Below are positions 36,862 through 62,248 of a stretch of DNA of 64,000 bases, in pieces. Both the position numbers and the translations under genes were made by a program. This stretch comes from Sporopachydermia quercuum. Lineage: Eukaryota. The first letter of the stretch is position 1, and each line of letters begins with the position of its first letter. The notes beneath the pieces are model-generated. The model ran no database searches and was not told the DNA's origin. It saw only the letters and a program-made list of their open reading frames with translations. The DNA lies in assembly GCA_001599295.1 (NCBI GenBank), contig BCGN01000007.1:1043791-1107790 (forward strand). The letters run 5' to 3'.

Positions 36862-36999
36862 TAAAGAGAGATTTTAATAGTCGGAGATAATAAGTAGTAG
36901 ATCGGAAATAATCTGGAAATAAGAAACTACGGATTGGTGCATTGGTAATAACGTAATCAATCCATGAGGTGTTCCGATCGGATTATTATTTGCATTGTC

Positions 37000-37042
37000 C
37001 CCCACAAAGTGCGAGTTTTAGTTTGAACTTTAACTTCCCCAC
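37000..37042 (-). promoter_or_regulatory. Two Mig1/CreA-like SYGGRG sites (CCCCAC on + strand) upstream of ICL2
   Basis: CCCCAC at 37000-37005 and 37037-37042. Consistent with glucose repression of a methylcitrate-cycle gene, but the motif is short. Confidence 0.3.
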
Positions 37043-39590: not shown

Positions 39591-40717
39591 CCAATGACCN
39601 AAAAGAGGCCACATGAATGGTAACTGTTGTAGTTCTTTCTCACCATCAGCTTTTTTCCTATAGTTCCTGATACTCATGCCTACNGCATTGTTATAGCATT
39701 GCAAAAAGAACATCGGTCNATGTAGCAAGTGATAATTCAATTAATTCCTAGACTTTATACATCAAGTGATCTCATCGCTAAGCAAACATATCATCGTTCT
39801 GTGTTGGTATTGGTCATTGCTATCAGCTGGTTACACTTGCTAGAAATACTAATTATTATATGCATATGAATTGGGAAAGCCGTCATATGACAGCTGATAG
39901 TGAGAATAGGCAACTGTTGCTATGAAATAGGTTTGAGTATCAGGAATATTGGGACTATTACAGATATTGTCAGATACAAAGAGATTATTAAAAATAAACA
40001 ATGTCTCGTAAGTTATTCGAGGATTTGCTATCAAATTTGCTATTANCAAGAGTACATTCGGTAGGTATCACTAGTTTTGTCAATACGAGAGACAAATAAG
40101 ATTCAAAAAGTATGCAGTCTCATGCTCAGACATGCAAAACTTTCAAACCTAAAACTCTATCTCAGCATCTCGTAACACTCTTCTATATACCTTTAACATG
40201 AACCAATAGTACACGTTTTCCAGTTGAAGTAGTACAAGGAATTCTCCATATTTTCATATTTCAGCTGTTATTCTGTTTCTAGCACTATTTCTATTTCTAT
40301 GCTTGTATCTCGTCGGCTGTCTACACCACAGGCATATTAGAGCTTCCTTCACCCACAGTTTTACATGTGCAACTCCACATACTTACAGAAAGAGGGAAAC
40401 CGATTCAAACAAAAGTTGAATCTCATTACTTCCCGCTGTTCCACTGGAAACCCCAATAAAATAGTCAGCAAACCAAGTAACTAAAACTATTCAACTCTCC
40501 ATGCAAAAAGCTTTCTATGCACCTGAATGGATTCTGTACATATAGTGCATAGACTTACATATTCACATGTAATATCAGACTCCTCATGTTTATTGTTTAC
40601 ATTTATCCAACTACAAACAAATATACATCCGAGTTTTAGCTACTCTTCCACACTTCCGCCCTTTTTTCGGCTAGTTCCTATCGAGATCTCTTCCGAAACT
40701 ACCTGTTATCTTCCAAA

Positions 40718-42439
40718 ATGATGCGATCTACAAAACGGAAAAACCCTTACACTTCTACGGTTTATATTAAAGAGAAAAGACTCAAACAAACAACCTCATC
40801 ACCAAAGCCTACCCTTACTTTATCCCAGGAACAACAAGCGATTATCAACGTTATTCTTACCCAGGGGAAAAATGTGTTTTTTACGGGAGCAGCCGGAACC
40901 GGAAAATCTTTCTTACTACAAGAAATTATTCGAGAGCTTAGGCAAAAGTACCGGAATGATCCGTTTGCTGTACAAGTTACAGCTCCTACTGGTTTAGCAG
41001 CTATTAATATCGGAGGACAGACACTACATAGCTTTGCTGGAGTTGGTCTTGGAGTTCCGCCGGCCCGAGAATTGATCCGATGTATGGCGAAAACTGGAAG
41101 AACGGCTTTGGAAAGGTGGGCTAGAACAAAAGTACTTATTATAGACGAAATTTCTATGTGTGATGGGCTGTTTTTAGATAAGTTATATGAGATAGCTAAC
41201 GAAGTGCGGGGACAAACCCGCTTTGGAGGAATCCAGTTAATATTTTCCGGAGATTTTTATCAGTTGCCACCGGTGAGTTCATCGGATAATTTCGGAAGGA
41301 AAACCACCCGAGTTTTCTCGTTTGATTCTAAATGCTGGTCGGAATGTATTGATCATGTGTTTGAACTTAAAACGATGTTCCGACAGGAGAATGATTTAAA
41401 ATTTGCTAGTTTGCTAAATAGAATTCGAATTGGGAGTATTTCTCCTGAGTTGGTCTCCGAGTTTTCCCAATTAGAACGACCTTTAACTCTCCGGAAAGGA
41501 ATAAAACCAACAGTGTTATTTCCAGTGAATAGTCGAGTGGATGAAGTTAACAAAACGAATTTAGCCGAGCTTCCGTTTCCGCTAATGATTCACAAAGCCA
41601 CTGATACCGGAAGGAATAAAAATAGCGAGTTTTTTTTCAAAAATCTTAGAGTTGGGGAAACTGTAGCTTTGAAAGTGGGGGCTCAAGTTATCTGCTTACA
41701 AAACATAGCTGAGTTGAATGTTGTCAATGGTTCATTAGGAAGAATTGTGGCTTATCTTCCGAGCAGAGTGTGGAAGTTATTACTAAGCTCTGCAGGCTCG
41801 GCAGGTTCGGAAAGTTTGGTAAGTTCGGGAAAAGAAGGGAAGCCTACACTATTAATTCAGATGATATCACATGTTCGGATTCAACAAATAGTAAGTTTAG
41901 CAGAGACCTTCCTTAAGGGAAAACCAAAAACGACTACAAAACTTAAACTTACTTCCATCCGATCCGATGGAATATACAGACGTCTAAAATCGGCTGCGGA
42001 ACAAACCTTAATGGAAAGAATCCTCATGAATAACTTACTAGATGTTCCGAAAGAACGGATATATCCTTTAGTAGATTTCTTAGATAGAGGATTAGTATTA
42101 ATGAAACCGCAAAGTTTTGAGCTTCCTGACCCGAAAAATGCCGATAAAGCTTTAGCTGCTCGGCAACAAATTCCGCTCGGCTTAGCTTGGGCATTGTCTA
42201 TTCATAAATCACAAGGTCAAACGCTACAGTATGTGCAGGTAGATCTGACTCGGTCTTTTGAATGTGGACAAGCGTATGTGGCATTATCTCGGGTTCGGGA
42301 TCGGAGTGGATTACAGGTCATCGGGTTTTCTCGGAGTAAAGTCATGGTTGATGATAAAGTAATTAAGTTTTACCGAACTCTGAGGACGTATTCTGACGAA
42401 GAGATAGTTAAGAACGAGCAAGGGAGAAGATGTGTTTGA
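40718..42439 (+). CDS. Pif1/Rrm3-family 5'-3' DNA helicase (compact, divergent)
   Basis: LSQEQ, NVFFTGAAGTGKSFLL, VTAPTGLAAINIGGQTLHSFAGVG, LIIDEISM, FGGIQLIFSGDFYQLPPV, FRQ, LKVGAQV, NGSLG, RQQIPLGLAWALSIHKSQGQTL, FECGQAYVALSR. I cannot tell PIF1 from RRM3 or an extra paralog. Confidence 0.92.
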   Translation: MMRSTKRKNPYTSTVYIKEKRLKQTTSSPKPTLTLSQEQQAIINVILTQGKNVFFTGAAGTGKSFLLQEIIRELRQKYRNDPFAVQVTAPTGLAAINIGGQTLHSFAGVGLGVPPARELIRCMAKTGRTALERWARTKVLIIDEISMCDGLFLDKLYEIANEVRGQTRFGGIQLIFSGDFYQLPPVSSSDNFGRKTTRVFSFDSKCWSECIDHVFELKTMFRQENDLKFASLLNRIRIGSISPELVSEFSQLERPLTLRKGIKPTVLFPVNSRVDEVNKTNLAELPFPLMIHKATDTGRNKNSEFFFKNLRVGETVALKVGAQVICLQNIAELNVVNGSLGRIVAYLPSRVWKLLLSSAGSAGSESLVSSGKEGKPTLLIQMISHVRIQQIVSLAETFLKGKPKTTTKLKLTSIRSDGIYRRLKSAAEQTLMERILMNNLLDVPKERIYPLVDFLDRGLVLMKPQSFELPDPKNADKALAARQQIPLGLAWALSIHKSQGQTLQYVQVDLTRSFECGQAYVALSRVRDRSGLQVIGFSRSKVMVDDKVIKFYRTLRTYSDEEIVKNEQGRRCV

Positions 42440-43042
42440 AGGTTTTGATTATCTAATACGGTATTGCAATTGATGATATTCCGAGGGAAGATACCTGGAA
42501 TGGCTTCAATTAAGTATATTTAATCCGATGTTGTATATATAGTAATGAAGAATAAGTTTTGGATTACGTAATTGAAAAACAGTGTTGAACTGAATTGAAT
42601 ATAGCATAGATTAATGATTATATAATCATTAAAGCATTAGCATCCCTTCTACATATTTTGAGAACACATCATTTTGTATAGAACATCCCCTGTCTTAATA
42701 AATATAAATAGAAAGTCATCTCATATTATTATCATGAAGCTGTTTTCACCATTAAAAGTGAGTTGTATTTAGAAACAAGTTATCACATATGTTATCACTC
42801 TCTACGTTCATTTCAAACACGGCTCCTATATTATAATTTCCGCTTTTAAATAGAACGGAAATAATTACAGAACCCATCTTCTCCGTAATTTCCTATTTTC
42901 TCTCACTGGAGTTTAAAAACATTCGGAATTTTTCTTGCTATCAACCACGTTACAAATCAATACAAAAACCTCGGCTCGGAGGCGAAACCACCAGAGAAGG
43001 CCGATACATCACAAATATTACCCATTCTAGCGTTTCGGAAGG

Positions 43043-44848
43043 ATGAAAGAAACCTTAATTGCTCTGTTTGCCCGGCATGGGAAAGGGCATCACGTGAATG
43101 TGAAATACGGGTACATTTTATTGGCTATAACATTTTTGGCTGTAATTCTCATTGCCTGCTGCAATGTACTTCGGAACCAGCGATGGGTGAAATCGGGCGA
43201 CTCTCGGAAATACTCGGAGAATTTTAAGCTCCCGTTGTGGCTATTTGTGGTGATTTGGGTAGTCATTGTGGCGTCATTAGGTGGCTATCATTACTCAGGC
43301 ACATATATTGATTTAGGGAAACGAATGGGAAGGTAAGCATAATATTATAATTTTATTGACCCGATGTTCCTCGAACGAAGAATACAAACTAGTACAGTCT
43401 CGGATTTGTTTTCTTATTTGGTGCTTTTCACTATCCTTCCGCTATCATCTTCGTTCTTACTAACATCTCTCTTTAGACTCTCTTTCTCATTACTTCCGTT
43501 TTCGACATTTTTAACCCTTCGGCCTTCACCATTACCACAAACAATATATTTACAGTTAATTCCTCTCCATAAATGGATCAGCCGAATTGCCGTTGTTGCT
43601 GGAGTCTTCCATGCCTGTTGTTTCCTTGTTCTATACGCTACGACTGGCCGTTTGACTCGCATGTTCGCGCTACGGAACTTTCCGGGTGTTATTGTATTCA
43701 TACTCTTTATTATTGTTTCCATTATTTCATTAAAGCCGTTCCGAAACCGGAATTATAAGCTTTTTTATAGTTTTCATTATGCCGTCGGCTGGATTTCGTT
43801 ATTGCTTATGCTTGTTCATGCGAGACCAAATGTCATTGTGCAGATAGCGTTAACTAGTATTTGTATGGGAGGACAATTGATATACCGGGCGTCAGTTAAT
43901 AAGACGTTTTCCGACATAGAAGTTACCGATGTTTCACCAAGTTTAAGTTTAGTGGCTTTTCCTCGGGTATTATTACCAGATAGGTTCCCTGCGGGGAGTC
44001 ATATAAGAGTATCTGGAGAAATGCGGAATCCCTTGAACTGGTTTGTATCTACACATCCGTATACTGTGGCAACATTAGATTCCGACTCCGAAGCCTATTT
44101 GGTTGTCCGGAAGACCCGATTTGAGCTTTCAGCAGGGGTTAAGTATTCCTCATTTGGTCCATTTTCTGCTTTGCCCTCCGCTTTTTTCCTTACAGCTAAG
44201 CAAGTTGCTGTGTTAGCCGGAGGTTCAGGAATATCTTTTGCCGCGCCTGTAGTTCGGGAACTTTCGGCTCGGGGCATTGATACTGAGCTTATTTGGGTGG
44301 TTCGGGACAAACGGGATGTTTCCGTATTAGANAAATTGGATGTCCATTCGGCTAAAGTATACGTAACGGGCACCAGGCCGAATTCTTCGGGAATAGTGGC
44401 CGATGATCTGTATGATCCTTTTACCGATGAAGAAGAAATTACATCCGGACAGGGTATTGATGATATTCCATTAGTTACCACAGCTTCGGCATCGGCAAAG
44501 ATCGCTAATTCCTCGGATGATATCTCCGGTTCGGATTTAGAAAGCTTACTTGACTATGACGACGAAAGTGGAAATGGAACCGGATCTACTCTCGGAGAAT
44601 CACAAACTTTGGTTGGGTCACCGGATGAGATCGGAAGTAGAAAGAAGGGGAAAACCGCAATTACATTTCAATACGGAAGACCCTTACTAAGCCAAGTCTG
44701 TCGACCGATCTTTGGTTTAAACAATTCTAACTCCGACCGTACTAACTCATGGTTAGTTGCATGTGGACCTGAGAGTTTAATTCAAGATGCAAGGAAATGG
44801 GCCAAAACGGAAGACATAAGGTTTGCGTCTGAGGAATATAGTTTATAA
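43043..44848 (+). CDS. AIM14: Ferric-reductase-like NADPH oxidase (Aim14/Yno1), 2 exons
   Basis: Exon 1 43043-43332 (MKETLIALFARHGKGHHVNVKYGY...GKRMGR), intron GTAAGC...TACTAAC...TAG, exon 2 43477-44848 (LSFSLLPFSTFLTLRP...IPLHKWISR...HPYT...AGGSGISF...VACGPESLI...EEYSL). Confidence 0.88.
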
Positions 44849-45545
44849 TCTGGTGTCTAAATGGGGTAATATACATTAAATTAGCTTATTACATTGTTGT
44901 TTATTTGGGGTACTAACTGAGGGATCAGGATGGATAATTGGTAGTAAGAGTATCATGTAAATTCCACTAATGATTAAAGTTAAAGTATTTAGCCAAGTTC
45001 GACGAAACCTTAACTTATGTTATTGTCTAGCCTCAATCACAATACCCAGGGGTAGTTCTAAATATAAAGAACTATAACCAAAACTACACTAGAGGAATGA
45101 ACTAATAAGCAAATAAACACATACATTTTGCTTGATAAGCCATAATAAAAGATAAAGCAAAGTCTGTAAATTTTAGTGTGTATAATTTTGTATATGAAAT
45201 TCGGCCTGAAGTCGGGTATATTGCAGTACAACAGGCCTAGTTTGTTGGCCTTACTATTCCACCAACTAACTCCCCTTTATGCATAGAACAATGATCTAAC
45301 TTTCTGGTCTAATATAAAGAAATCAGCTGCTTTTATTGATTGCTCTGAATTTAACTGGCCTGCCTATATAATTAGTCTTTTAATTTGTAATACACTGGCA
45401 TAGAAATGGACTGTAACATAATTAACTGCTCGAAAGCAATGCAACGTTGACGCAGGTACCAAACCTAAAACCTAAAACCCAGATTCAAAAAATCATTATT
45501 TCATTAGGATCTATTTATTCATACCAAAATGTCTACTAGAAACCA

Positions 45546-48500
45546 CTATTTAAATCTATTATTAGAACTCCCTGAAAAAGCGCTAGCACTTCGATTATTA
45601 TTTGGCCTTCCCTGAGTGATGTTCCCCGATGCAGTTCCTCTAGCAAAAGGTGCACTAGATGATCTCTGAGTGTTTTGGGCAAAGTTCGGAGACGCTAAAA
45701 GCTCTTGAGTTGACTCATTATTACCATTATTACCAAATGAAGCAGTTGAAGTCATACTGATCCGCACATTAGGGNTATTGTTTGAACTAACCCTCAATTC
45801 TCTTTCTGGATTACCAACTGCTCTATTACCAATGCTATAGTCAACATATGAAGTAGGACGCGAGAAATCTCTCATTTGAATCATATCTTCCTTATTAATA
45901 GCATAATAGTCACTGAATGGCTCATAGGAACTGAAATTCGGCTGAGAAGCTAACATAGAGTTTCTACCGTTCTTTCGGTTNTCAAACCAATCGGGTCTTT
46001 CTACCCCTGGAAGGTTATTTCTTAACGCGAACTCAGTCCATAACTCTAGTGGAACTTTATGCGGGTCGAACGGTTTATCGCTAACGCTAATTATTTGTTT
46101 CCCGTTCTTTTCTTCTACAACAATTCTAGTGTTACCCCAAGTGAAATTGTCTTGGTTCCAGAAGGAATAAATTGGTAGTAAGAACGAATGAATTGGATAG
46201 CCGAGGATATAAATGATCATCCAGCCAATCTAAAGTTTAGGGTTAGTAAAGTGAATAAAGATGAGGAAATCAAGCAAACATTAACCTAATGTAAGCCAAT
46301 GTAAGCCATATGGAAGCCAAATGAAAGCCAAATGATAGCTATTAGCAATAAATAAACCAAAAACATATTAAGGCTATTTAAGCGTCTAGCTTCAATTTCA
46401 CCTCATTTAGCTCAGCTCTGCCTAATCCAATTTCGCCAACGAAACCTTAACAAAAAATATCAACATACATGTTGCCATTGCCTTTTTAATATGAATAAAA
46501 TCACTTGTAAACCATAAACAGCTGCAATCATGATTATAGAAATAAGCGGTAGCGGCCCGTCTTTGGCGGCTATTCTGTAAACAAGATAAACAAGATAAAT
46601 AAACACTGATGGTAATAAAATCGTTCTGAATATAGAGTTAAGGTTACAGTTAGTAAATTTCCCGTGTAACTTCAAAATATTTCCCTTTCCTAAATAGCCA
46701 GCTCCATCATAACCTTAACTTTAACTTACCCAGCCAAATCAACAAATACTACAAACCGCATCCCCACACAGCAAAATCCACACATATTGTCCAGCTTTAA
46801 TAACTCAACTAAATTATGCACTGTTGAGTTTATCCATCTTCTTCTTTGCGATAATAAAACTATAAGTTCTTCCGGAGCAAACGTGGCTGCTTTAGCTTGT
46901 CCGTTAAACACATATTTCATCTTCCCGAAATGTTTAGTCATAACCGTGGTTAAATATCTGTCTTCGCCTAAGGAAAACAAGTTTTTCATATGCAAAGTGT
47001 CAACTTTATTTACGGAATAGTCTTCAATTACCTCATTTGATATAATCAGCGGCTTTAGGGTATCAGCTGTCCGAATCCGGTATACTGTGAAACATCCGGG
47101 AAGACAGGTGACAGAGCCAAATAAACTTTCAAACGCTTTTGTTAGATGATGAGATATGAAATACTCATATACTTGAATCATTGTCCACAAAGAGGAGTCT
47201 TCGTTCTGTAAACATGTTTCTCCGCAGATCCCCGCAATTCGGGAGTCATTAACGCATTGGGAAATAAGAACCGAAAGAGAGTCCGGATCAATGCATGTGT
47301 CGGCATCGATCATTAGTAGGTACTCGTATAATTCCGGGTCAATGCCGATGATGTTGTTGATATGGTGGAATAACTCTAACTCTAATGGGGTCATTAGGGT
47401 TTGGTAGTGAACCTTATTCAGAAAGTTTAGTAGGAGGACTTGTGAATCTCTTTTACCGCGGTTTCCTGGTTTAGAAGATGATCGTTCCGATTCGGCTCCG
47501 ATTTTCTCCACGACTATAAACGGAACAACTGCTGCTTCAAACTGGTACAATCCGGAGTAGACTTTGCCGAAGTTCAATTGGGCAGAACCTTCTGCTACAG
47601 ATTTAAACGGTAATTCTGCCGCTGCTGCTCGTTCCGATTCAGGCACTCCGAGGATATCCAACACAATCTCACTAGTCGGCTTATCATTGCCCGATCCCGT
47701 AACTTTGCCATCACACACTACGAAAATAAGCTTTCGGTCATTCGGATATTTAACCGAGGTTACAGAATCAATTGCTAATCTAAGCGACGCTTCATCTTCT
47801 GTGTATACCGGAATTTGACATATAACGTAGCGGTTTTGTTCTTCCGGTTTCTTTTTACCTCCGAATTGAAGCGCGGCTAGAAACTTAACCAGAGTTACCG
47901 AAGAAAGCAAAATAGCAATTGCAAGAAGAACATAATTTGAGGCTTGGCATTTCGCCGATTTCCGGAAGTCGATTTCTCCTGCCGGAAACATAGTTTTGAT
48001 GCAGTTAAGATTGGCAACTTTAACTGAGTCGGGAATAGATAAAGTGGAGATTTTATCGGTGACATCGCTTCCGGCATATCGGGTGATAACAGAAACGATG
48101 TCCTCGTTGAGAAAATCGTATTTTGCATAAGCAGTTGATAGCTTTGGGTTAAACCGGGTCAATGTGTATGTGTAATCGGTTATATCGTAAATCTTTCCTG
48201 AGATAATAACCCAATTATTATATCCGTCTTCACCAAAGCTNCGGAACTCCGAATTGGGAACAACAAGCGAGCCTTTCCTGTATTGGGAAACCTCGGGCAT
48301 AAACGTGTCTGTATACCAATCTTCGGAATATTTCGAAGAAGTTACGTCCGAGGTGAAATTGGGCCCATAATATTGAATAGAGTTTGGATAGTATAAAGTT
48401 TGGTTCGAGGACAGAAACATCGGCTCTTTGACCAAATCTGGGCANGCCATATGCACGTCTTGAGGGAAATACCCGGAAACATCCGTACCGGCAAATATCA

Positions 48501-50829
48501 TCTTTTCCGCTGCCGTAGAACCGGAAAAGATATCGGAATTAGTTCGAGTATACAACCGGGTAAAATCGTATACCTCGCCATGCATAGACACAAAGAAATC
48601 ATCCGAAGCCGCGTGTTGTTCCACTTCTTGCGCGGTCCACACAGAATCAAAATTCGGACAGATTAGCCGAGATAAAAATATCATATAGAACAAAATAGCT
48701 GCGTTTAATATGCCAATGATGATGCAAATGGCCAACTTTTCCCGCCAAGCGATTCGGACTTCTCTTCTGGGCATTCTGCCGACATATTTAAGTACAAAAC
48801 TAGGAATCCAAAACACTAATGTCCATACAATAGTTAGCCAAAGTTTGCGGTCCCGGGAAGTTTCCTGAACTATAATTGAGTTTCCGGGGGTGCTTTCTGG
48901 ATCGGGTAGGTATTTCCCAGACAGGAAATCAGGGTCGGAGAAGTAGGAATGCTCCGATTCGGAATAATTGTCGGTTTCCCCGCGGTTTTCATTCCCACTG
49001 GGGTATACGTTAGCATATTCATCAGAAGCGGAATAAAACGGGTCGGAGACTTTTGGTGGCACTGATACACCTCGAGCAACCAAGATATCTTCCAGTTGAC
49101 TTTCCAAATCAGTCCAGATATCCTCGTCTAGCCAAACCCTAGTTTTGCCGAGAAATAGTTCATCGGAAGCGAATCCTTTTGTAGTGGCTACCCATCGGGT
49201 CAATTTGTCTTGAATCTCGGATCCAAACACCGGATTAGGAAGCCGTCCCGGTCCCAGTTCCGATTCCGATCCAGGTTCTTGTTCCGGTTCCAAATTAGAG
49301 TTAAGTACATTGGATAAAGCCGGAGGTAAAATCGGCTTATATCGGGTGATAAACTCTTCATAATCAAAATCAGCGGAGAAATCAGACGATTGCCGTTTCA
49401 GGATCCAGTCTGAAAGGTAAAATAGCCGAGCTTGTTTTGACACAAATGACGTATTCCACGCGGGATACTCCGAAAGGACATTTAGCCACGGCTTTTTAGG
49501 CTCCGATTGGAAGTTTATAATGGACCAGACTCTAGTAACATCGAATAAAGTTTGGGCCATGGATTGAGAATAAAGTTTCGCGGAACTATCGGAATCAACC
49601 GGAAACGACAATAGGCTGTTTTGTACTAAGTCTTGGGTAGTTTCGGACTTGATAAACCGTTGTAGCAAAGAGATTATAAGATTATCCATTTGCTGTTTCC
49701 CGGTTTCTGCCGAGGAGATTTCTTGGCGAATTCTTCCCGGAGTTTCCGAAATCGGAACGCCATCAGCTATAAGCTCGGCATTTATTCCCGATTCGTCGTA
49801 GAATACATTTTTCAGTAGTAAATACCGGAAATCATGGGGTAATGATAAAATGTTGATTTCGGAAGAGATAGTATCTTCTCCGGCACCCTCATCCTCCTCC
49901 TCATCCTTTCCGAGTGACCCCACATCATAATGGGCCAAAAATTGATTTAAATGTCCAATAATTGCCGAGATTAATCCGATATATACTGCTTTTATTATTT
50001 CCGGTATTGAAAACTCATCTAAGATTTCCGGAGATAATTGTAATATTGCTGCTCCGGAAACAATGTCGGGTGAATTTGGAGTTTTAATCCCGTTACCTAG
50101 TAATAAGATTGCGGAAATAATACCACAAATCTGAGGGAATAGCTGCCCCATTTGGCAAAATTCCATACTCGATTTCCAATCCGACATTAAAGCCGAATCG
50201 TCTAACAATGAGCTCGGTACAGAAGACAAAATACAATCTCCCGCATCCCCAATTAGGGAATACTCTCGGATATATTGCTTAATTTCGCATTCGGCTTTAA
50301 GTTCGGAATTCTCCGGAGATTCGGCTAGGTCGTGTAATGCATTGAACACGTGATAGAAAACGTCAAACACCCGGTTTCCATCTTTTTCCGGAAGGTTGAG
50401 CAAATGGGTGAAATCAGAAATAACCGGATTGTTTGTCTGGATTCGGGTAGATTGAACAGAACCGTCGGAACCCAAATTCACACATACATTAATTCCGTTA
50501 TGGAATTCCGCTTGGGGATTAGTTTCCGTTGCTGCTGTGTAAAACGGAGATACTACAGATAATGCGGAAAAGATCGCCGGTGGTAAACCAAGAAACCCAT
50601 TCAATAGCTGTCGGAACGACTTCTGGGCATCTGGGATTCCCGAAATGACGGCAATTGTCTGATTTTCGGAACGGAGGTATCCGTGTTTCCAAACCGCGGA
50701 CAGAAACTCTCGGTCCGCTTCGGAATCAAACGTCACTAGTGATGTTGAGTCTAGTTGTGTAGTATTCCCATCTTGGAAGTTGTTACGGAGCGATTCCAGA
50801 AGGTTTGTTAGGGAAATTGCGGAGGTCAT
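45546..50829 (-). CDS. Chitin synthase with degenerate N-terminal myosin-motor-like domain and cytochrome b5-like domain (class VII-like), 3 exons
   Basis: Exons 50829-46730, 46625-46469, 46229-45546 with GTAAGT/GTATGT donors and TACTAAC branch points. Catalytic motifs [60 protein letters not shown]. Motor remnants [34 protein letters not shown]. No P-loop seen. Confidence 0.92.
46288..46340. repeat. Degenerate 10-11-bp minisatellite (AATGTAAGCC-like) in chitin synthase intron 2
   Basis: AAGCC at 46293, 46303, 46314 and 46325, then TAGCT at 46336. Confidence 0.65.
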
Positions 50830-52273
50830 TTTGCGGGGTAGAAGATTCAGGTTCCGAGATAAACTCAGAGACTACTCAGAGATGAACTCCTGTATTCAAT
50901 TCGGCTATTGTTCCGTTAGTCAGCTGTAACAACAGGCAATCCTCACTCACACAAACCACGGATCAGATACACATAGAACTCTGTAGCTCTACGCACGTTA
51001 TGCATACAAATATCCACAACTTTATTACCAGCACTCTTAATACTTTTCCACCGCAGTTTTCGTTGAGTCTTATGTAGTGAGATAGATGCAAATAGTATAG
51101 AAAATGATCAGAGAGAGAAAGAAACGAGTGTTCCGATGATTTGATCTAGAATTTGAGCTGTCTAAAAATAACTTTCGAGAGGTGCATGATGAAGCAGGAA
51201 ATAAGAACTTGAGATTTGAAGCTTAAAGGCTCAAACATGCGTTTGGATTATATAATCAATAATTAAGTTTAGAAGATATAGCGATAAAATAGGAGAAAAG
51301 GATAAGATGGTGGTATAAGTAGTAGAGGATGGANAATTGATTCTGTTGTTTATTTCATGGGATGAAATGTGTGCTGTGGTATATCAAATGTTGTAAAGTG
51401 GTATTTTTATGAGGTAAAGCCAGGTTTATGTAAGAGCATGCAAAACATTGAAATTAGCTTGAAGTTTATTCTGTTTTAGGATTAAAAATAAACAGTAGGA
51501 AAGTTCAAAAGTTTGGAGTGAGACTGGAAGCAGCTATGAGAAGGGTTATTGGACAGAAGATGTTGAAGGGTTAGTAAAGATAATTAATGATAGGTAGTAC
51601 TTCACAAATCTGTTTAATACTTACTTTTACCAGCTGATTTTGACATTTCAAACCAAGAGATGACTACTATACGTTTTAAAGTGTGATTTGTTAATAATAA
51701 GTATTCACTGTCTCTTTTAATTCTATTTGTTTGTATTTAACGGGCATCCTATGTTATATTCACAAGGTTCTTGTCCCATTACCCATAGAGCTAGCAAGTT
51801 CGCAGATGTCCTCGTGGAAAGTCACGTTCCTTATCATTTCCGTAATAACCAATTTCCAATTCAGCTAGTTTCTCCATTTCTCGTCCCTAAAACTGTTATA
51901 ATTGTTTAAAAATAAGATAGAATGGAGATTTTTTATTTATGCGAAGAGTCTTAAACCAGAATATCTAACAACCCAAAACTCTGTCATTATCTCCAAAATG
52001 TTCACTCTACTTCTCAACTTCTCTAACCTACATTCTCATATCTTCTCCATTGTATTACCGGATAATAAAGGATTACTTATTCGTTTAATATTCCAGCAAA
52101 ATCACATTCTTTCGGTATTACCAAGGAACTTGTCGAAATAGACAAAAAATAATTTTCTCATTAGTATTTCCGTTTCTCGGATTAAATACACACTGCAAAA
52201 CCTAATTAGCTCTACTTATTGCTTTCGGCGACTTCTTTTTCTGTCTCTTTTGCTTTACTTTTCCTTTGATTAC

Positions 52274-55200
52274 CTAATCATAAATCTCCGTGGGCGGTAT
52301 TCTGTCTATATCATAAAACCAGTTACCACTGTCCAGCTCACGTGACAACCATTCTGTCGGAAACACAACTAAATGGCCTTGAATTTCTTTTAGTAGTTTT
52401 TCCGCGGTCTCTTGACTATAAATAGTATTCTGCCAGTTGTGTTTCCCCTTTTGTTTTCGATGATTTCCGCTATTTCCGTAACGTTTCCGCGACCTGCCGG
52501 AAAATCCAGGTCTAAAGATGGTATGAACGGGTACTGTTTCAGCCGATTCCTTATTATCCAGCACTTTCACAGCTTTTAGTTCTGCTATCTTTTCCTTTTC
52601 TTCTGCTTCCTTATACATGTTAAGTATCTTTTCCTCAAATTGGCCTTTTTCTTCCATCATTTCTCGGGTCATTGGTTCCGAGAAGGTTAAAGATTCGGGG
52701 AGTGAGCCCCTAAAGGAGTAATTCTCGGACTGAGACCCGATGGTTTTATTTAATGAGGTCTGTGGACTTAATGGCGGTAGATCGATTTCTAGGCTTTGCC
52801 GAGGAGGCTTACCTAATGGCCCCTGTCCGGATAATCCCGAGATTTCTTCCGCCCTGGCTTCCATAGTTCCGATACGCGTTTCGCTTTTGCCGTTTTTGCC
52901 GTTTTTGCCAGTAATATCTCCGCTATTTGTCCCATCCACATGCTGTAACACAGAAAAGGCAGCATTAAGCCGACTATGAACCTTATATTCGTTCCAGGAA
53001 TTAACTTCGTCATCCGGCTGACATCGGAACACGCTTCGGTAAAGTTCTGTGTTTCGATAGGCAATATCAGCCCAGATGTCTTCATAGAACTCAGGTGAAA
53101 TCGGGTCAATGAAGCCGTACGGATCCACAAATGTTCTTCCATTTTGATCCGCAGCGGGACCAGCTAAACTGTCGATTTTGGAGTCAATTTCACTGTCGGA
53201 TAAGGTAATAACTGAAATTGGTTCCGCTGTTTCGTTACTTCCCGGAGTACGGAATAGTATTTGTATTGCCGAGGGTGATGGACCAGAAGCGGAAGGAGTA
53301 TTACCTGATTGGGCGGTTGAAGTTGAAGTTGAGGTTGAATTAACGTTGTTATTACCTGATTGGGAAATAGTTTCCTCTTCTTCCTCTTTAGTCATCTTGT
53401 CGGCTACTCTTCTGAAATAGGCAATTCTTTTCAGTAAGTCGATCTTAGCTTGGTCGTCTAAAACAGGAAATCCTTGCCGAGACAAAAGAAGGTTTTCTAC
53501 TGTTTCATCTGAGATTGTAAACACCGAACCTAAACCTTGGTTCTTATGCCTATTACTTTTATAGCTGAAACTATCTTTTGCTAATTGTTTTAAAGCAGAC
53601 CGGAGCTTTTTTTGTCGAGCTTGAGAATCCGATTTCATCTTATCGGGGCCCAACCCCGAGATATCGGCCCGATGTTTTGAGTTTCCTTGTACTCGAGAAT
53701 CCGAACTTATATTTTTCTTATCACGTAATCCTTTATTGACTTCACCAGCTTTGTGGTTAAATGAGAGGGAGAGTTCGGGATATAATTCCTGTTTAGGTAC
53801 TGGTCGTATTAATTCTTTACCTAAAATAGCCTTCGTGGCCAATTTCAGTAAGGTTTCCGTTATTTGGGAGTCTAGATCGGCATTAACAACATGTCCGCCG
53901 CTATTTCCCGAATTTTGGTCATTTTTATCGCTTGGGCCGCTGAATTGCTGATTGACTTCAGGTTGTGGTAAGTCAACCTCTGTTCTTTGTGGGCCATTTT
54001 CACCCCTCTTCCCAACTTTAGCTTTCTTTTTACCCCGCTTCACCTCGGTTTTCGCCTCGCTAACCAGCCGTTCAAACATCCGCTCCACAATCTCAATCTC
54101 ATCAACATCTATGCCTAAATGTTCCCGCATTAGCCGAACTCGTAGTGAATGAGCAAACTTCCCCGCTCTATACGGCTGTCCCCCCATGTAACTATCAACC
54201 ATCGTCCGATCTCGGACATACGCCGCTATTTCCGAGTCTCGGATACCCCGCATCGACCGCTCATTCACATTAGCCGAACCTATTAGTGCTATTCTGTCAT
54301 CCACAATTAGCGTTTTGGCATGAACATATAATTGTTCCGTAACTAGCCGAGTTCCCGTTTTGGGCAGCGTACCGAGCTTGCCCCATTTCCGCAACGAGAA
54401 AAACTCTAAATAATCCTCGCTTGGAATCCCTAATCGGGACAGCTTTCCCATAATAGAATTGCTGCCACGTGATATCGACATGTACTGACACTGCATGATT
54501 ACCCGAACGGAAGATCCCTCTGGTTCATGCACGTTGGATTCAAATCCCGGCATGAGAGGTATCATAATAATGCCCCGCCATTGTTCTCCGTTCCGATGGG
54601 CTCGGATGATCCGCTCCACTAGGGCGTTTCCTATTTGGTTCTGGATTACTATTCCATCAAATGCCGTTGAAGTTACAAAAAATTGGTTCTCCATGTATAC
54701 AAAATGTTCCGACTGTTGAATACTTCGAATGTAAGCCGAATGAATGCTGGTTTCTGGTGTTTTCAAGCCGAGGGACCACGGGCCGGCGGACCGGAGGATT
54801 TGGACCTCACAGGTTCCGGGATAAACTGGGATGTTGGCTTCTAAATAGCTGGCGGGGTCAGTAGGGTCGGTAAGGTTAGCGAGGTTAGCAGGGTTGGCGG
54901 TTTGTGAGTTGAGGTTGAAGTTAGGGTTTAGGTTAAAATTGAGGGCATATCTGTATCGGGAAAATGCCGCGATATCGGAATTGCCTAAGCCAGAGATATA
55001 TCCCGAGTTGAATTTAGCCTCGTTATCTATGCCTAATCCAGTTCCAGTTCCAGTTCCGGTTCCTGTCGGAGCAAGGTGATGGTGATGGTTATGGTTATGG
55101 TTATGGTTATTGAGGTGACTCGCGTCCGGATTAGGCAAATCTGCGGGCGGTAACAATAGTGGAGTGGCCCTGCTCGGCCGTTTTTGCCGAATAAGGAAAT

Positions 55201-58200
55201 TCCACCTCTGGACAAAATGCCGAGCCAAGTCCCGAGCCGCCTGGCCCGAAACCATCATGTGAATATCATGCCACGGCATTCTCGGCGTCTCGGACCGCGA
55301 ATACATGTCCACAAATGGCTTATCAAGTGAATGGAAATCTTTGATGCGGGGATTTGAGTAGTCTTTTCCGGGCCATATTTGTTCTTGTAGGTTTCGAGCT
55401 CCATTTCCGGCATCGTTTCCGGTATTTGGGTCATTAAATCCGAATGGATATCCTTCATCTTGTAACACGTGATCGCTGGAGTCCCACCGGCCAAAGCATA
55501 AATCTACCCCGCCTAGAAATCCCACTTTATGGTCCACAATAGCTATTTTTTCATGGTGGGCCCAGAAATATGTGTTTTGGATAATCTGATTAGGTGATCG
55601 AACGACATAGATGTTCGGATGTAAGTCTAATAACGAGTGTTTACTGTATAGAGAATCAATCGGGACAAACGTGTCCATATTCCGGTACAGGATTACGTAT
55701 ATTCGGACGCCTTGCTCTGCTTTCCGTTTCAGGAGCCTGTCGATCCGATACTCGGCATTCAGTCCGGGAGGTCTCCGCAAGTAGAGTTCCGGGGACAACC
55801 ACCAATCGTGGATGTAAATGGTGTCCGTGGCCATATCCAGAGCAGTGGACACTGTCCACATGTAATCTCGGGCGTCCACAAACCATTCGGCATGGACGGA
55901 AGTCCTGATCGGAGCAAATGAGTTAAATCTGTGTGGTTTAGCCCATTCGGAAGTGGCGGCCATTTCTCGGAAGCTTTTGAGCCAATCTCGGATGTGCCGC
56001 TGTTTGCCGAAAATTTTGAGTTGCCTTTCGCTGTTTTGTAGAGTAATTGAGCCGTGGAGATGAGGGGAAGCTTTGGCAGGATAGTCCGAATCACTTCCGG
56101 AGATGTCGGAGTTGCTAGAGTTGGCTGAAGTGTCAGAATTGCCATCAAATACCTCCGATTCGGCAATCTTAAACTGCGGATCCACTAGAAAGACTTCAAG
56201 CGGGGTAGCCGCATTTATATCTTCTACATACATAACGTATGAACCCCGCACTATAAACCATTTCGGAACATGCCGGAACACCATTGCTTTTATGTCATCC
56301 GGCCGAAGATGTGACACTCTCCATCCTTGGGCTTTTGCCGAAGATCGGACAATGAGATACCCTTGTTTTCCTGAATATTCCAGCTCGTTCGCTAGTAGTA
56401 ACCTGATACTGGACAGTTCCAGGAACTGGAATAAGCGGTTCGCGAGACCTCGGAACATTAGGGTGTGGAATAAAGTTCTGAGGTACAATTGTAGTGATTT
56501 CCGGAGGTCTTCGGACGCTAAAGTTTGGGCTGCAAAGTGGGCGGTAAAGGAGGAAAGCGGAGAAGATGTGGGAACTAAGGATAAACGTTTCCGGAGTTTA
56601 GTAGATTTTTTGGTGTTAGGAGGATTATTGATTCCAGATTTTGAGTTCGAGTTGCGATTAATGTCGGAGTTGATGTAGATTCCCGAATCGGAATATTCGC
56701 CGTCATTCTCCCGATGAAACATTACTGTAATAGGAGTTTGTGGTTGTGACTGTGAGTGAAATAGTTTTTCGTGTTTTTCCAATTTTGGACTGAGTTCTGC
56801 TTCCGATTCAGATTCGGGTAATATTCTCTCCAAATTAAGTATTTGTAATTCTTTCTCTTCCGATACCTCTTCCGGTTCTCTTGCGCTTTCCGCTTTTTGC
56901 TCTGTGGTCTCTGGAACATCTGCCAGATCCCGGCTTTTTCCTATACTAATCGATTCCCCTCTCGGCTCTCCTTTCGAATCTCCTTTTGCATCCATCTCCG
57001 ACTTCGGCTTCGGAAATTTGGGAAGCTGAATTTTCTTCCCGTTTCCGCTTCCAAACGCATTCTGCTGAAATATTAAAACCTTCAACCGAGAATGGAACCT
57101 CTCAAAATCCCGATAAGATTTGTCCACATGCCAAGCTATCCGAGCAACCCCGGAGCCATATTCTAGGTTCACGCGGTACTCGGCATGGGGGTTACCCGAT
57201 TTAGTAATTTCTACTTTGAGCTGTTCCGAAAGTATCGGAGTTCTTTTAGTCTTGTGATCATCAGTCTGGAAAGCCGAGGCTAAGATTATAGCCGCAGGGG
57301 CGCCAGCGGAAAGTTCCGCCATAAGTTCTGTTGATTTCTTTTCATCCGTTCCGTCTTTTTTGGATTTCCGTCTGAACCGATGCCCGAATTCTCGGATCTT
57401 CTGGATTTTATCTCCGACATCGTGTTGGCTTGGATAGATTTTCTTCATCCAGCTTACTGAGCTTCTGTGAGAAGATTCGGTCGTAGTTCCGTTATTATTT
57501 CCGGTGTTTGTTGTGTTATCTGTGGTGATTGTTCCTGTATTGTTTCCGGCGTTTGTTCCGTCCTGGGAGTGACTCCGATGGAGGAAGAAATCGGTACGCC
57601 ATTTCACTGAATTTCGGTTTCGATCAGGTGCGAAAGTCGTTCCCGTCACAGAAGCCGCCGCGGAAGCGGAAGCAGATGCCGGTGCAGATACGTTTTCCCG
57701 TTCGTTTTCAGTATCAGTAACGATATCGGAGCTCTCATGGTTCCGAGGAAAGGAACCGAATCTAAATGCCGATTTAAAGCGGGGAGATATCCGAGTCCCC
57801 GTTGGAGACTCGGGCCGGTAATTGGGTGCCGCATCGGAAACAGAATAAGGCTGGGGATGTTCCGAATGCTGGGTCTGTAGCCGAACCGATCCGTCGGGAG
57901 CGGAATTTTGTCTTGTTACCCTTGATGCTAACCTATTAAGCAACTGAGCAGTTTTTCCTCTCGGTTCAGGTTCCGGGTCGGAATCAGCTTCATTATCGGC
58001 ATCGGTTCCGTTATCCAAATCGGGAATCAGAGTTTTCACTGGGTGCGGATCCGAAATTTCGTTATCGGTAAAAGAAACACGTCTGAAAGTGTTTGGCTTT
58101 GCATACGTATTCGCTCTTCTACTGCTGTTTTCGGTAATTCCTAGGCCGATTTCTTCCGTTGCCCCACTTTCGGATCCTTTCCCAACCTGCCCTGCTTCCG

Positions 58201-58234
58201 AAGTTCCGTCTGTACCGTTTGTTTCACCCGCCAT
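52274..58234 (-). CDS. SPO14: Phospholipase D1 (PX-PH-HKD2)
   Basis: Single ORF; first in-frame ATG at 58234 (MAGETNG). PX region (LEYGSG..WHVDKSYRDF), PH region (GKQGYLIVRSSAKAQGWRV), IHDWWLSPELYLRRP, HHEKIAIVD and HAKTLIVDD (two HKD motifs), PRMPWHD, C-terminal IQGHLVVFPTEWL..IPPTEIYD. Confidence 0.96.
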   Translation of the reverse strand: MAGETNGTDGTSEAGQVGKGSESGATEEIGLGITENSSRRANTYAKPNTFRRVSFTDNEISDPHPVKTLIPDLDNGTDADNEADSDPEPEPRGKTAQLLNRLASRVTRQNSAPDGSVRLQTQHSEHPQPYSVSDAAPNYRPESPTGTRISPRFKSAFRFGSFPRNHESSDIVTDTENERENVSAPASASASAAASVTGTTFAPDRNRNSVKWRTDFFLHRSHSQDGTNAGNNTGTITTDNTTNTGNNNGTTTESSHRSSVSWMKKIYPSQHDVGDKIQKIREFGHRFRRKSKKDGTDEKKSTELMAELSAGAPAAIILASAFQTDDHKTKRTPILSEQLKVEITKSGNPHAEYRVNLEYGSGVARIAWHVDKSYRDFERFHSRLKVLIFQQNAFGSGNGKKIQLPKFPKPKSEMDAKGDSKGEPRGESISIGKSRDLADVPETTEQKAESAREPEEVSEEKELQILNLERILPESESEAELSPKLEKHEKLFHSQSQPQTPITVMFHRENDGEYSDSGIYINSDINRNSNSKSGINNPPNTKKSTKLRKRLSLVPTSSPLSSFTAHFAAQTLASEDLRKSLQLYLRTLFHTLMFRGLANRLFQFLELSSIRLLLANELEYSGKQGYLIVRSSAKAQGWRVSHLRPDDIKAMVFRHVPKWFIVRGSYVMYVEDINAATPLEVFLVDPQFKIAESEVFDGNSDTSANSSNSDISGSDSDYPAKASPHLHGSITLQNSERQLKIFGKQRHIRDWLKSFREMAATSEWAKPHRFNSFAPIRTSVHAEWFVDARDYMWTVSTALDMATDTIYIHDWWLSPELYLRRPPGLNAEYRIDRLLKRKAEQGVRIYVILYRNMDTFVPIDSLYSKHSLLDLHPNIYVVRSPNQIIQNTYFWAHHEKIAIVDHKVGFLGGVDLCFGRWDSSDHVLQDEGYPFGFNDPNTGNDAGNGARNLQEQIWPGKDYSNPRIKDFHSLDKPFVDMYSRSETPRMPWHDIHMMVSGQAARDLARHFVQRWNFLIRQKRPSRATPLLLPPADLPNPDASHLNNHNHNHNHHHHLAPTGTGTGTGTGLGIDNEAKFNSGYISGLGNSDIAAFSRYRYALNFNLNPNFNLNSQTANPANLANLTDPTDPASYLEANIPVYPGTCEVQILRSAGPWSLGLKTPETSIHSAYIRSIQQSEHFVYMENQFFVTSTAFDGIVIQNQIGNALVERIIRAHRNGEQWRGIIMIPLMPGFESNVHEPEGSSVRVIMQCQYMSISRGSNSIMGKLSRLGIPSEDYLEFFSLRKWGKLGTLPKTGTRLVTEQLYVHAKTLIVDDRIALIGSANVNERSMRGIRDSEIAAYVRDRTMVDSYMGGQPYRAGKFAHSLRVRLMREHLGIDVDEIEIVERMFERLVSEAKTEVKRGKKKAKVGKRGENGPQRTEVDLPQPEVNQQFSGPSDKNDQNSGNSGGHVVNADLDSQITETLLKLATKAILGKELIRPVPKQELYPELSLSFNHKAGEVNKGLRDKKNISSDSRVQGNSKHRADISGLGPDKMKSDSQARQKKLRSALKQLAKDSFSYKSNRHKNQGLGSVFTISDETVENLLLSRQGFPVLDDQAKIDLLKRIAYFRRVADKMTKEEEEETISQSGNNNVNSTSTSTSTAQSGNTPSASGPSPSAIQILFRTPGSNETAEPISVITLSDSEIDSKIDSLAGPAADQNGRTFVDPYGFIDPISPEFYEDIWADIAYRNTELYRSVFRCQPDDEVNSWNEYKVHSRLNAAFSVLQHVDGTNSGDITGKNGKNGKSETRIGTMEARAEEISGLSGQGPLGKPPRQSLEIDLPPLSPQTSLNKTIGSQSENYSFRGSLPESLTFSEPMTREMMEEKGQFEEKILNMYKEAEEKEKIAELKAVKVLDNKESAETVPVHTIFRPGFSGRSRKRYGNSGNHRKQKGKHNWQNTIYSQETAEKLLKEIQGHLVVFPTEWLSRELDSGNWFYDIDRIPPTEIYD

Positions 58235-59468
58235 TTGTGGTGTGGTTCCTATTTTGCCTGCCGCGGAACACAACAGGTTAATTTCCTCCTTGAACTGAAA
58301 ACCGGATGGGCCGATGTCGCACAAATAATAAAAACACAAAAATATGAACCTTCGGAACCCAACTTTACGAATTGGTATGTTTTGTGGGGTTCATTTTACT
58401 CCATTTATCAGATGTATTCACACAGTAAACGAAAAAGAAGAGNAGCAACGAAATTGTGATCTGTGATACGTTTAGATGTCATCGGTACGTTTGTGTTTTT
58501 GTGTGTTGGCAAGGGTGTTTGTACAATGATGCATACTTTATGCATAGTTTGTTTTAAGGTTTGAAATAGCTGAGAGAAAAAGAATAAAGTTGGTAGTAAG
58601 CAGGTTTTTTCTCCTTTGAAACGTAGTTTCATTATATGCTCAAGCTGGAAGCTTACGATAAATTTTAATGCATATAATGGCTCCTTAATAACTAGACACA
58701 AAATTTCCGGTTGGCGAGTTGACTGTTTAGGTTTATTTCCATTGATTATGTTGATTGTTTCTTTCCGCTATTCCTTATGCATATTTAAGCAATTATTTTG
58801 GTTCCTGCATATTCTTAACTTAATCTGAAACCTTAAACGGCTCATTCCATTTTTCATCCGCATCTATCTCTACATACACTTGGAAAAATATTAGAAATCA
58901 GTTCTTTTTGTTACATAATGTTATATTATTTCTCAGCAATCTTAAAATTATTGTAAGAGATTTGTCCTTCTACTATGAAGGAGCCCAAATTCATGTAACA
59001 GAGATACATATCATTCTTCTTAGTTACTCTGCATTGCTTACATCTGTAGAATAATCAATGATTTTAAGCAACGTATTAAGCAACAGATTACACTTAAACA
59101 GCAGGTATTGGTTCAATAATTGTCAGTAATATTACATTTATTTATGTCAAGGTATTCTAACCATGCTTGCGCTCTGATTATATTCTAATCTAATTCCAAT
59201 CCTTCATTGTTAATTTTTCCTGTCTCTAGGTCATACTAGTACTAGTATTGTCACTATCTATAGAAACATGTTTAACCTTTGCCGATAACATTTACCAACT
59301 CTGTATACTAAATCAGTATAATTCACTCATTAAAAACCAACTTTTTATACCTCACTAAACAACCTTCGTAAAGAACACTCCACATTGGTAAATCTTCAAT
59401 CAAATAAAGTGTCCCAAATGAGTGGTCATTAACTCATTATGTCTATAGATTTCAAAACAAAATTGTCT

Positions 59469-62242: not shown

Positions 62243-62248
62243 AAAANN

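Follow-up and report, generated by a model that had tools for sequence, protein, structure and literature searches.

In a 64,000-nucleotide stretch of the Sporopachydermia quercuum genome (contig BCGN01000007.1, positions 1,043,791 to 1,107,790 of the forward strand; GC content 38.4% over the 64 kb), hereafter the window, we found that the trinucleotide CCG and its reverse complement CGG are crowded into certain transcription units, or parts of them, and scarce in others. The force responsible for this enrichment is specific for the triplet and acts regardless of reading frame and equally on the two strands. It is directed at its product, its limits are on the scale of genes, and it was probably strong enough to change the sequence of one protein. 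A preliminary description of the sequence had drawn attention to the triplet, listing a series of dense blocks that were said to ignore gene structure and proposing a DNA-level chromatin or modification code.

The blocks were delimited by segmentation, DNA being classed as rich where the density of CCG plus CGG was at least 25 per kb after 400-bp smoothing. The rich class came to ~18.4 kb at 45.2 sites per kb and the poor class to 41.7 kb at 7.6 per kb, i.e., a 5.9-fold enrichment that holds by construction, because the classes were defined from motif density itself. Rich segments were located at 1-2089, 11544-12964, 34209-35102, 36338-36767, 40700-42451, 42873-44793, 46878-50915, 52268-58406 and 63289-63833, closely reproducing the blocks of the preliminary description, save that one of these had been started at 33790 when it actually begins at ~34205 (there are no sites at all in 33900-34199). 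The contrast that it had described is confirmed and is stronger than had been claimed; on recounting, bases 1-600 contain 28 sites (not 24), and the open reading frame (ORF) of KRE33 contains 16 (not 15). Counted per 500 bp, some stretches carry 20-39 sites and others 0-5. The range 40600-58400 alone holds 678 sites (38.1 per kb), compared with 12.3 per kb in the remainder of the window.

This density is not a product of dinucleotide composition. When the four rich blocks within 40600-58400 were shuffled with their dinucleotides preserved, the observed count was reached in 0 of 200 shuffles of each block (z = 5.5 to 10.4), and the enrichment thus persisted under this control; the motif-poor genes KRE33 and HRQ1 gave z-scores of -0.3 and +0.3, respectively. 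Likewise, relative to a first-order Markov model, sites were 1.63 times as frequent as expected in rich DNA, compared with 1.03 times in poor DNA.

The enrichment is confined to the one triplet. While the raw GC content of rich and poor DNA differs (43.7% versus 36.1%), masking of CCG/CGG left 35.8% and 34.7%, respectively; since these values are nearly equal, the entire difference in GC content is due to the triplet. Rich-to-poor ratios were 8.4 for CCGG, 7.7 for TCGG/CCGA and 5.3 for CCGC/GCGG, whereas the other CpG contexts (TCGA, ACGT, TCGT, TCGC, ACGC and GCGC) gave ratios of 0.8-1.4 (e.g., TCGA 1.05, ACGT 1.36, TCGT 0.82 and GCGC 1.0). Flanking bases matter mildly, the preferred context being T-T-CCG-A, and the top 5-mer is TCCGA/TCGGA (enriched ~11 times). 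Two further compositional features were seen in the rich genes. Words containing GCA/TGC are the most depleted after TCA/TGA (GCAC/GTGC 1.46 per kb in rich versus 4.01 in poor genes, AGCA/TGCT 6.3 versus 13.9, TGCA 1.7 versus 2.9), and GCG/CGC is slightly enriched in its own right, the Ala codon GCG being used at 0.17 versus 0.06 even where no CGG can be formed.

Codon usage alone cannot produce this pattern, as had been claimed at the outset, and three lines of evidence agree on this point. First, permuting synonymous codons within the rich genes yielded 635 ± 13 sites where 810 were observed (z = 13), so that the enrichment persisted here too. Second, rich proteins recoded with the codon usage of poor genes would carry 14.7 sites per kb instead of the observed 45.3. 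Third, codon choice depends on the bases that follow. The share of TCN codons ending in C or G was 0.75 in rich genes (n=212) and 0.26 in poor genes (n=111) when the next base was G, and 0.36 and 0.31 when it was any other base. Similarly, the share of NNY codons ending in C was 0.53 in rich (n=88) and 0.28 in poor genes (n=81) before GG, and 0.65 (n=54) and 0.28 (n=25) before CG; it was 0.26 in both classes before a G that is not followed by another G, and 0.39 and 0.36 before other bases. In line with the claim that several codon positions are involved, the motif occurs in all three codon phases of the rich genes.

Where a codon cannot contribute to the motif, the two gene classes look alike. 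Among such codons (3661 of 5913 in rich genes, 4710 of 6602 in poor genes), the GC content at third positions (GC3) was 0.369 and 0.356, usage differed after Bonferroni correction in only 2 of 16 amino acids (Ala and Leu), and the Ser codon TCG was used at 0.08 in both classes. The raw difference in GC3 between rich and poor genes resides in the CCG/CGG contexts. Expressed as a fraction of the maximum number of sites attainable by synonymous choice, rich pieces reached 35-56% (pooled 46%) and poor pieces 0-21% (pooled 12%), with the 5' part of TOP2 intermediate at 31%; in 300-bp coding windows, this fraction was roughly bimodal. The term 'saturated', used of these genes before, is fair wording. 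Each of the three single transitions that can produce the triplet is in use (TCG to CCG, CTG to CCG and CCA to CCG, with their complements), and the force is therefore set by the product and not by a single mutational context.

Both strands are affected equally, as the preliminary description had stated. On the sense strand of the rich genes we counted 384 CCG and 426 CGG, with 173 CCGA and 173 TCGG, and 198 CGGA and 163 TCCG; moreover, in none of 7 pairs of 4-mers and none of 32 pairs of 5-mers did the enrichment of a word differ from that of its own reverse complement at p < 0.05. Equal counts alone cannot exclude an RNA motif, because T-C-S-G-A, the core, reads the same on both strands. We therefore also considered folding energy, which, in 240-nt windows compared with their synonymous permutations, gave mean z-scores of -0.12 ± 0.18 (36 rich windows) and +0.04 ± 0.22 (36 poor windows). 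mRNA structure as the cause was thus rejected, real rich windows being no more stable than permuted ones. Given this null result, the strand symmetry, and the enrichment of introns and of 400 bp upstream of APL1 described below, we conclude that the cause acts on duplex DNA.

The range 40600-58400 comprises four genes, each of which contains a rich block. The first block (40700-42549, + strand) covers a PIF1-family helicase gene (ORF 40718-42439; Pfam PIF1, E = 5.9e-42) with ~100 bp of 3' flank. The ORF carries 34.8 sites per kb in all three phases and uses 35% of its synonymous maximum, and its count was reached in 0 of 200 dinucleotide shuffles. The second block (42800-44848, + strand) is the transcription unit of an AIM14-like ferric reductase (Pfam Ferric_reduct, NAD_binding_6 and FAD_binding_8), made up of 5' non-coding DNA (42800-43043), exon 1 (43044-43333), an intron with the splice signals GTAAGC...TACTAAC...AG (43334-43477) and exon 2 (43478-44848). 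Exon 2 has 47 sites per kb. The 200 bp 5' of the gene has 7 sites (35 per kb), confirming that the enrichment spreads into promoter-proximal DNA. The intron has 3 (21 per kb): it is enriched, as had been noted, yet at half the exon density and not at the level of the exons.

The third block (46728-51150, - strand) consists of exon 1 of a chitin synthase gene (46728-50829; Chitin_synth_2, E = 7e-166, and Cyt-b5) and ~300 bp of 5' flank, of which 200 bp holds 5 sites. This exon uses 56% of its synonymous maximum, with all 13 of its 300-bp windows at 0.43-0.68 and a dinucleotide-shuffle z-score of 10.4. It encodes 1367 amino acids including a cytochrome b5-like domain, which is long for a Chs3-type enzyme; no myosin motor was detectable in it with Pfam. 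The rest of the gene lies in a poor gap (44850-46727, - strand), which was recognised from site counts, splice signals and the Chitin_synth_2 match and also includes intergenic DNA. Within it are exon 3 (45546-46229, aligning to positions 459-525 of the Chitin_synth_2 profile), intron 2 (46230-46467, 238 bp without a single site), exon 2 (46468-46625) and intron 1 (46626-46727, 102 bp with 1 site). Density thus steps down from 48.7 per kb in exon 1 to ~25 in exon 2 and ~16 in exon 3.

The fourth block (52050-58406, - strand) is a SPO14-like phospholipase D gene (ORF 52274-58234, 1986 amino acids; Pfam PLDc) and reaches ~220 bp beyond the ORF on its 3' side and ~170 bp on its 5' side. The ORF has 48.5 sites per kb (z = 9.6 against dinucleotide shuffles), the 5' flank 30 per kb and the 3' flank 20 per kb. 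Two features of this gene are of separate note. Around residues 1045-1075 of the protein, the catalytic region is interrupted by an insert, an Asn/His run (NNHNHNHNHHHH) and then a (TG)5 repeat, and an ORF of 191 amino acids (56103-56678, + strand) runs antisense within the gene. Such long antisense ORFs are probably a by-product, because the depletion of TCA, CTA and TTA on the sense strand of rich genes removes antisense stop codons.

Outside this range, rich DNA was found in five further places, all on the - strand. The 5' part of TOP2 (1-2784; Pfam topoisomerase II) has 38 sites per kb in 1-2089 and ~21 per kb in 2300-2784. An ORF of 555 amino acids without a Pfam family (11325-12992) contains a rich block at 11544-12964, its 3' 220 bp and both flanks being poor. 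A gene with a VASt domain, resembling sterol-transfer proteins, is rich at 63289-63833 (Pfam VASt) and poor in its 3' 460 bp. In all, three ORFs have a motif-poor final 140-460 bp. The remaining two places belong to APL1 (beta-adaptin), which is a patchwork. Exon 1 (~36470-36600) has 8 sites in its 130 bp and, like the 400 bp that precede it (together 36470-37000), is rich; the upstream DNA has 25-30 sites per kb, a second instance of spread into promoter-proximal DNA. The intron (36231-36469) has 12.6 per kb and the first 1.1 kb of exon 2 only 8 per kb; a 960-bp patch at 46 per kb follows (34205-35165), and the 3' end is again poor. The edges of the patch (~35165 and ~34205) are sharp to tens of bases and lie within a single exon, and six 300-bp windows along the gene used 0.17, 0.22, 0.00, 0.45, 0.60 and 0.52 of their synonymous maximum. 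Together with the chitin synthase gene, this bears out the assertion that density switches within single genes. Separately, a tandem run of three GATCC units was noticed at ~36790-36815 (- strand), in the rich DNA upstream of APL1 exon 1.

Overall, the enrichment fills exons. At lower density it also takes in introns and the nearest 100-400 bp on the 5' and 3' sides, beyond which it ends. The non-coding DNA of rich units holds 48 sites in 2923 bp (16.4 per kb), compared with 113 in 17240 bp of baseline non-coding DNA (6.6 per kb; p = 5e-7). The spacers between rich genes are poor, with 0 sites at 42550-42800, 2 at 44850-45550 and 2 at 51150-52050 (~900 bp of deep intergenic DNA). The domains are therefore the size of transcription units and not regional, which overturns the statement that they ignore gene structure. 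It also speaks against a purely regional mutational bias, one of the causes put forward at first, under which unconstrained DNA should match or exceed exons and is instead poorer. At a larger scale, the 19 ORFs of at least 150 amino acids in the window hint at a possible physical grouping, with four adjacent rich genes at 40.7-58.4 kb and poor ORFs in succession at 13-34 kb. The rich genes (TOP2, PIF1, AIM14, chitin synthase, SPO14, part of APL1 and the VASt gene) have no function evidently in common. Expression level was considered as a possible cause; the poor genes include MAP1-like, KRE33 and ICL1, yet also HRQ1 and an SSK1-like gene. An ORF of 1075 amino acids (21899-25126, - strand), also poor, shares with the 555-amino-acid ORF the lack of any Pfam family at E <= 0.01.

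Within the rich genes, sites are spread more evenly than in codon-permuted genes. In 100-bp bins, the ratio of variance to mean was 0.96, versus 1.31 ± 0.15 after permutation; pairs of sites less than 8 bp apart were scarce, and those 8-13 bp apart were over-represented (z = 3.0 to 6.4). A nucleosome-like period of 10-11.5 bp was the strongest found, but its z of ~2.4 among ~200 periods tested is not significant. Of the pairs 8-12 bp apart, 105 have the same orientation, 59 are CGG..CCG and 41 are CCG..CGG, and no preferred spacing or orientation of CGG half-sites was found beyond the 3-base periodicity. The idea, raised in the preliminary description, of arrayed sites for dimeric Zn2Cys6 proteins predicts a fixed spacing and orientation of half-sites, neither of which was seen. 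Promoter-type sites for such proteins likewise found no support as the explanation: exons are densest (45 per kb), and 5' flanks hold 20-35 per kb where they are enriched and 0 in the case of the 555-amino-acid ORF.

We also asked how the motif relates to protein conservation, using for SPO14 50 of the 120 orthologues listed. The fraction of codons touching the motif was 0.20 at invariant positions (n=423), 0.20 at replaced, 0.23 at variable (n=775) and 0.23 at unalignable ones. Replacements in SPO14 driven by creation of the motif were rejected, since 13 of 65 replaced codons at conserved sites touch it (0.20), equal to the 86 of 423 unchanged ones. The aligned core of the protein allows 100.2 possible sites per kb, compared with 87.7 ± 4.4 in the 50 orthologues, exceeding all of them but for one tie (rank 1 of 51). 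For the poor gene HRQ1, the corresponding values are 77.7 and 76.7 ± 3.8 (rank 19 of 51). Because SPO14 tops its orthologues and HRQ1 is average, the force has probably changed the SPO14 protein in this lineage, a reading of sequence comparisons with one gene per class.

The enrichment appears to be particular to this lineage. In 15 other fungal SPO14 loci (retained from 40 fetched after removal of most near-duplicates and shorter matches), the ratio of observed to expected sites was 0.62-1.00, in gene and flank alike; in the window it was 1.96 for SPO14, 0.50 for KRE33 and 0.62 for HRQ1. A metagenome scan with SPO14 returned 40 loci, among which there was no close relative, best-segment identity never exceeding 70%. 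As to the identity of the DNA itself, the top protein matches are diverse budding yeasts at ~60% identity, and the window is therefore from a Saccharomycotina yeast; its introns have the donors GTAAGY/GTATGT and TACTAAC branch sites. SPO14 and HRQ1, one rich and one poor, have the same best-hit taxa at ~60% identity. Scans for tRNAs and Rfam families gave no match in the window.

The blocks are not an artefact of assembly. The stretch is present in three sequencing runs (two samples, two studies), with no RNA run listed among them, and 40047-58442 is spanned by a single contig with 0 substitutions in each of two runs from two studies. These two may come from the strain that yielded the window or be its very source; the identity of their contigs argues against a chimera or artefact. 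The sole difference of these contigs from the window across 18.4 kb is an additional T after position 58289, in the 5' flank of SPO14, in the contig of one run (X3), the other (X1) agreeing with the window. The window contains 68 N letters at 67 places, all single but for the pair 62247-62248 (examples are 2067, 5256 and 48241), at 1.69 per kb in mostly non-coding DNA versus 0.56-0.75 per kb in coding DNA. This pattern is the one expected if the letters replace ambiguity codes at diploid heterozygous sites, with a heterozygosity of ~0.1%.

The explanation that we rank first, as a tentative preference that falls short of being probable, is an in-place bias in the fixation or survival of the CCG/CGG duplex in some genic DNA, because it accounts best for an enrichment that is product-directed and alike on both strands, for the compositional background common to the two classes and for the enriched non-coding parts of rich units. 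A lineage-specific force on double-stranded DNA would raise the frequency of CCG/CGG, with a mild preference for T-T-CCG-A flanks, wherever a one-step change can create or retain the triplet. It would target some transcription units or parts of them and spare others, and what it would favour, in fixation or survival, is the product and not mutation in one sequence context. Repair or gene conversion might be steered toward CCG/CGG, or the triplet might decay more slowly in certain genic chromatin. The non-adaptive nature of such a force, its origin in place and the molecule that carries it are what we infer here.

Several points weigh against this explanation. Under a neutral bias, unconstrained DNA would be expected to carry no fewer sites than exons, and introns and flanks hold only about one third to one half of the exon density, while deep intergenic DNA between rich genes shows no enrichment at all. 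The very sharp switch within the APL1 ORF looks more like a recombination junction than like the edge of a chromatin domain. The sites are more even than in codon-permuted genes, with few pairs closer than 8 bp, which suits a bound factor or selection on density. Furthermore, the evidence comes from one 64-kb window with classes defined from motif density, and the shift in protein composition was assessed in one gene per class.

Ranked second, and in our judgement possible though doubtful, is mosaic ancestry, i.e., that the genome is a recombinant of a CCG/CGG-rich and a normal lineage, arising by hybridisation and loss of heterozygosity or by introgression. The rich blocks would then be tracts of the rich parent, whose own genome-wide enrichment would still need an explanation. 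The two sharp APL1 junctions in one exon are what this predicts, as are the part-way switches in the chitin synthase gene (exon 1 versus exons 2-3) and the VASt gene, the tract-like runs of rich and poor genes and the rough bimodality of the 300-bp coding windows. There is also a precedent, since the compositional mosaic of a Lachancea kluyveri chromosome C arm is attributed to introgression (PMC4271529, PMC7449078; also cited in PMC9246145). Yet codon usage outside motif opportunities is nearly identical between the classes, and the two parents would therefore have to share everything but the triplet. In addition, deep intergenic DNA within the supposed 18-kb tract is the same as elsewhere, block edges mostly fall at the ends of transcription units, and the density of single N letters in coding DNA is alike in the two classes (10 in 17.9 kb of rich versus 15 in 20.0 kb of poor DNA, p = 0.55). 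Finally, SPO14 and HRQ1 share their best-hit taxa, which excludes a distant donor.

A bolder form of an in-place cause would be a motif-directed system acting on duplex DNA (repair, gene conversion or a bound reader) that writes or preserves CCG/CGG in selected transcription units. We regard the existence of such a system as unlikely on present evidence. We are just as reserved about the portrait that it would imply, of a system maintaining a nearly saturated and remarkably even density of about one site per 22 bp, filling ~46% of synonymous opportunities and reshaping at least one protein.

Distinctly unlikely, and third in rank, is a selected DNA-level code, in which a reader of double-stranded DNA keeps CCG/CGG dense and even and thereby sets a chromatin or expression state. 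Candidate readers would be a protein recognising a single CGG, as Zn2Cys6 domains do, a CxxC-type reader preferring CpGG, or a base-modifying enzyme. A code of this kind accommodates the product-oriented and strand-symmetric enrichment, a density that is uniform across protein conservation, the shift of the SPO14 protein toward more possible sites and the use of ~46% of synonymous opportunities. The even spacing, with few pairs below 8 bp and an excess at 8-13 bp, would fit a footprint, and the faint 10-11.5 bp period (z ~2.4, short of significance once the number of periods tested is allowed for) leans the same way. The non-coding DNA of rich units, free to change, should nonetheless hold at least as many sites as exons and holds fewer, the spacing and orientation preferences that dimeric zinc-cluster proteins need are lacking, and the rich genes have no evident common function. 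Moreover, according to a 2026 review, Saccharomycotina have lost all 5-methylcytosine (5mC) methyltransferases (PMC13297926).

Selection on the mRNA is far less probable. Here, CCG/CGG would be favoured in the transcript for the sake of secondary structure, in which CCG can pair with CGG, or of a factor that binds or modifies RNA, much as motif clusters mark particular fission yeast mRNAs. The gradation of the enrichment, highest in exons, middling in flanks that resemble untranslated regions and gone in deep intergenic DNA, is what one would expect of it, and CCG and CGG have the same flanks on the sense strand (T before, A after). However, folding energies equal those of synonymous permutations, introns are enriched too, as is the 400-bp stretch that precedes the APL1 start codon, and 0 of 39 k-mer pairs favour a word over its reverse complement, a symmetry that an RNA reader would not need.

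Least probable of all is a methylation mosaic, with poor DNA methylated and stripped of CpG by deamination and rich DNA unmethylated, a situation familiar from CpG islands and from invertebrate genomes in which mosaic methylation creates two classes of CpG observed/expected ratio: CpG observed/expected ratios of ~1.0-1.3 in rich blocks and ~0.3-0.8 elsewhere, and the depletion of CA/TG and TCA/TGA in rich DNA, agree with it, but only the CpGs within CCG/CGG differ, other contexts being equal; rich DNA has ~2.2 times the CCG/CGG predicted from base composition and 1.63 times the Markov expectation, and is therefore not merely undepleted; and Saccharomycotina are reported to lack the 5mC methyltransferases required (PMC13297926). 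General GC-biased gene conversion, nucleotide-pool effects and an ordinary CpG-methylation mosaic were all rejected, as the changes that they predict outside the triplet were not seen.

Studies of yeast codon usage assume that genes differ through translational selection or a general GC bias, and the rich genes break this assumption; models of codon usage, of expression and of gene transfer would misread them. If motif-directed repair or a CCG/CGG reader is indeed at work, it would be a mechanism not previously known to shape eukaryotic genes, and in a yeast it would be open to genetic study. A drive toward the motif would be a eukaryotic counterpart of the very-short-patch type of drive in bacteria; alternatively, a DNA-level gene mark would have been found in a lineage thought to be without DNA methylation. 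If mosaic ancestry is true instead, it would reveal hybridisation with an unsampled lineage of very unusual genome signature.

Among known systems, very-short-patch repair of Escherichia coli, in which sequence-specific mismatch repair drives the genome toward one short sequence, is product-directed and non-adaptive, the kind of mechanism that our data suggest. It differs in being bacterial, coupled to Dcm methylation and genome-wide rather than restricted to genes, and we know of no enzyme of this type in yeasts. CpG islands and mosaic methylation create kilobase-sized blocks of normal or high CpG in a CpG-depleted background; here, only CpGs with a 5' C or a 3' G differ, and the blocks are gene bodies, not promoters. 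Repeat-induced point mutation in filamentous ascomycetes destroys CpA and raises TpA in duplicated DNA, wrecking genes. Like it, the process described here is strand-symmetric, context-specific, acts at the DNA level and makes mosaics on the kilobase scale; unlike it, the process adds a GC triplet, TA occurs less often in rich DNA (61 per kb) than in poor DNA (84 per kb), and ORFs of up to 1986 amino acids are intact. GC-biased gene conversion is also a strand-symmetric fixation bias at the DNA level that mimics selection and varies along chromosomes. It favours all changes from A/T to G/C and non-coding DNA as well, whereas here the GC content outside the motif is equal and deep intergenic DNA is unaffected.

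The Lachancea kluyveri chromosome arm is another case of mosaic composition in budding yeasts that codon usage reveals. It is reported to be a single 1-Mb arm with GC raised at all sites (PMC4271529, PMC7449078), unlike the 0.5-6 kb blocks, the single trinucleotide and the unchanged background codon usage of the window. Closest are the gene classes that Cope and Shah (2022) reported from 49 Saccharomycotina, which differ in non-adaptive nucleotide bias and are physically clustered (PMC9246145). That article leaves their cause unresolved, discussing biased gene conversion, nucleotide pools and deamination feedback (PMC9246145). As in that study, something other than translational selection sets two classes of genes apart in their synonymous composition. 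The classes described there differ in overall GC3 and comprise tens to hundreds of genes (PMC9246145), whereas in the window GC3 is unchanged where no CCG/CGG can form, the unit is a gene or part of one, and a single trinucleotide is affected in all frames and in flanking non-coding DNA too. Variation in nucleotide bias among the genes of one yeast genome is thus already known. Its gene-restricted CCG/CGG form appears to be new, insofar as a limited literature search yielded no description of it in yeasts, in agreement with the preliminary description. Should the in-place bias hold, the pattern would be a trinucleotide-specific extreme of the heterogeneity among yeast gene classes.

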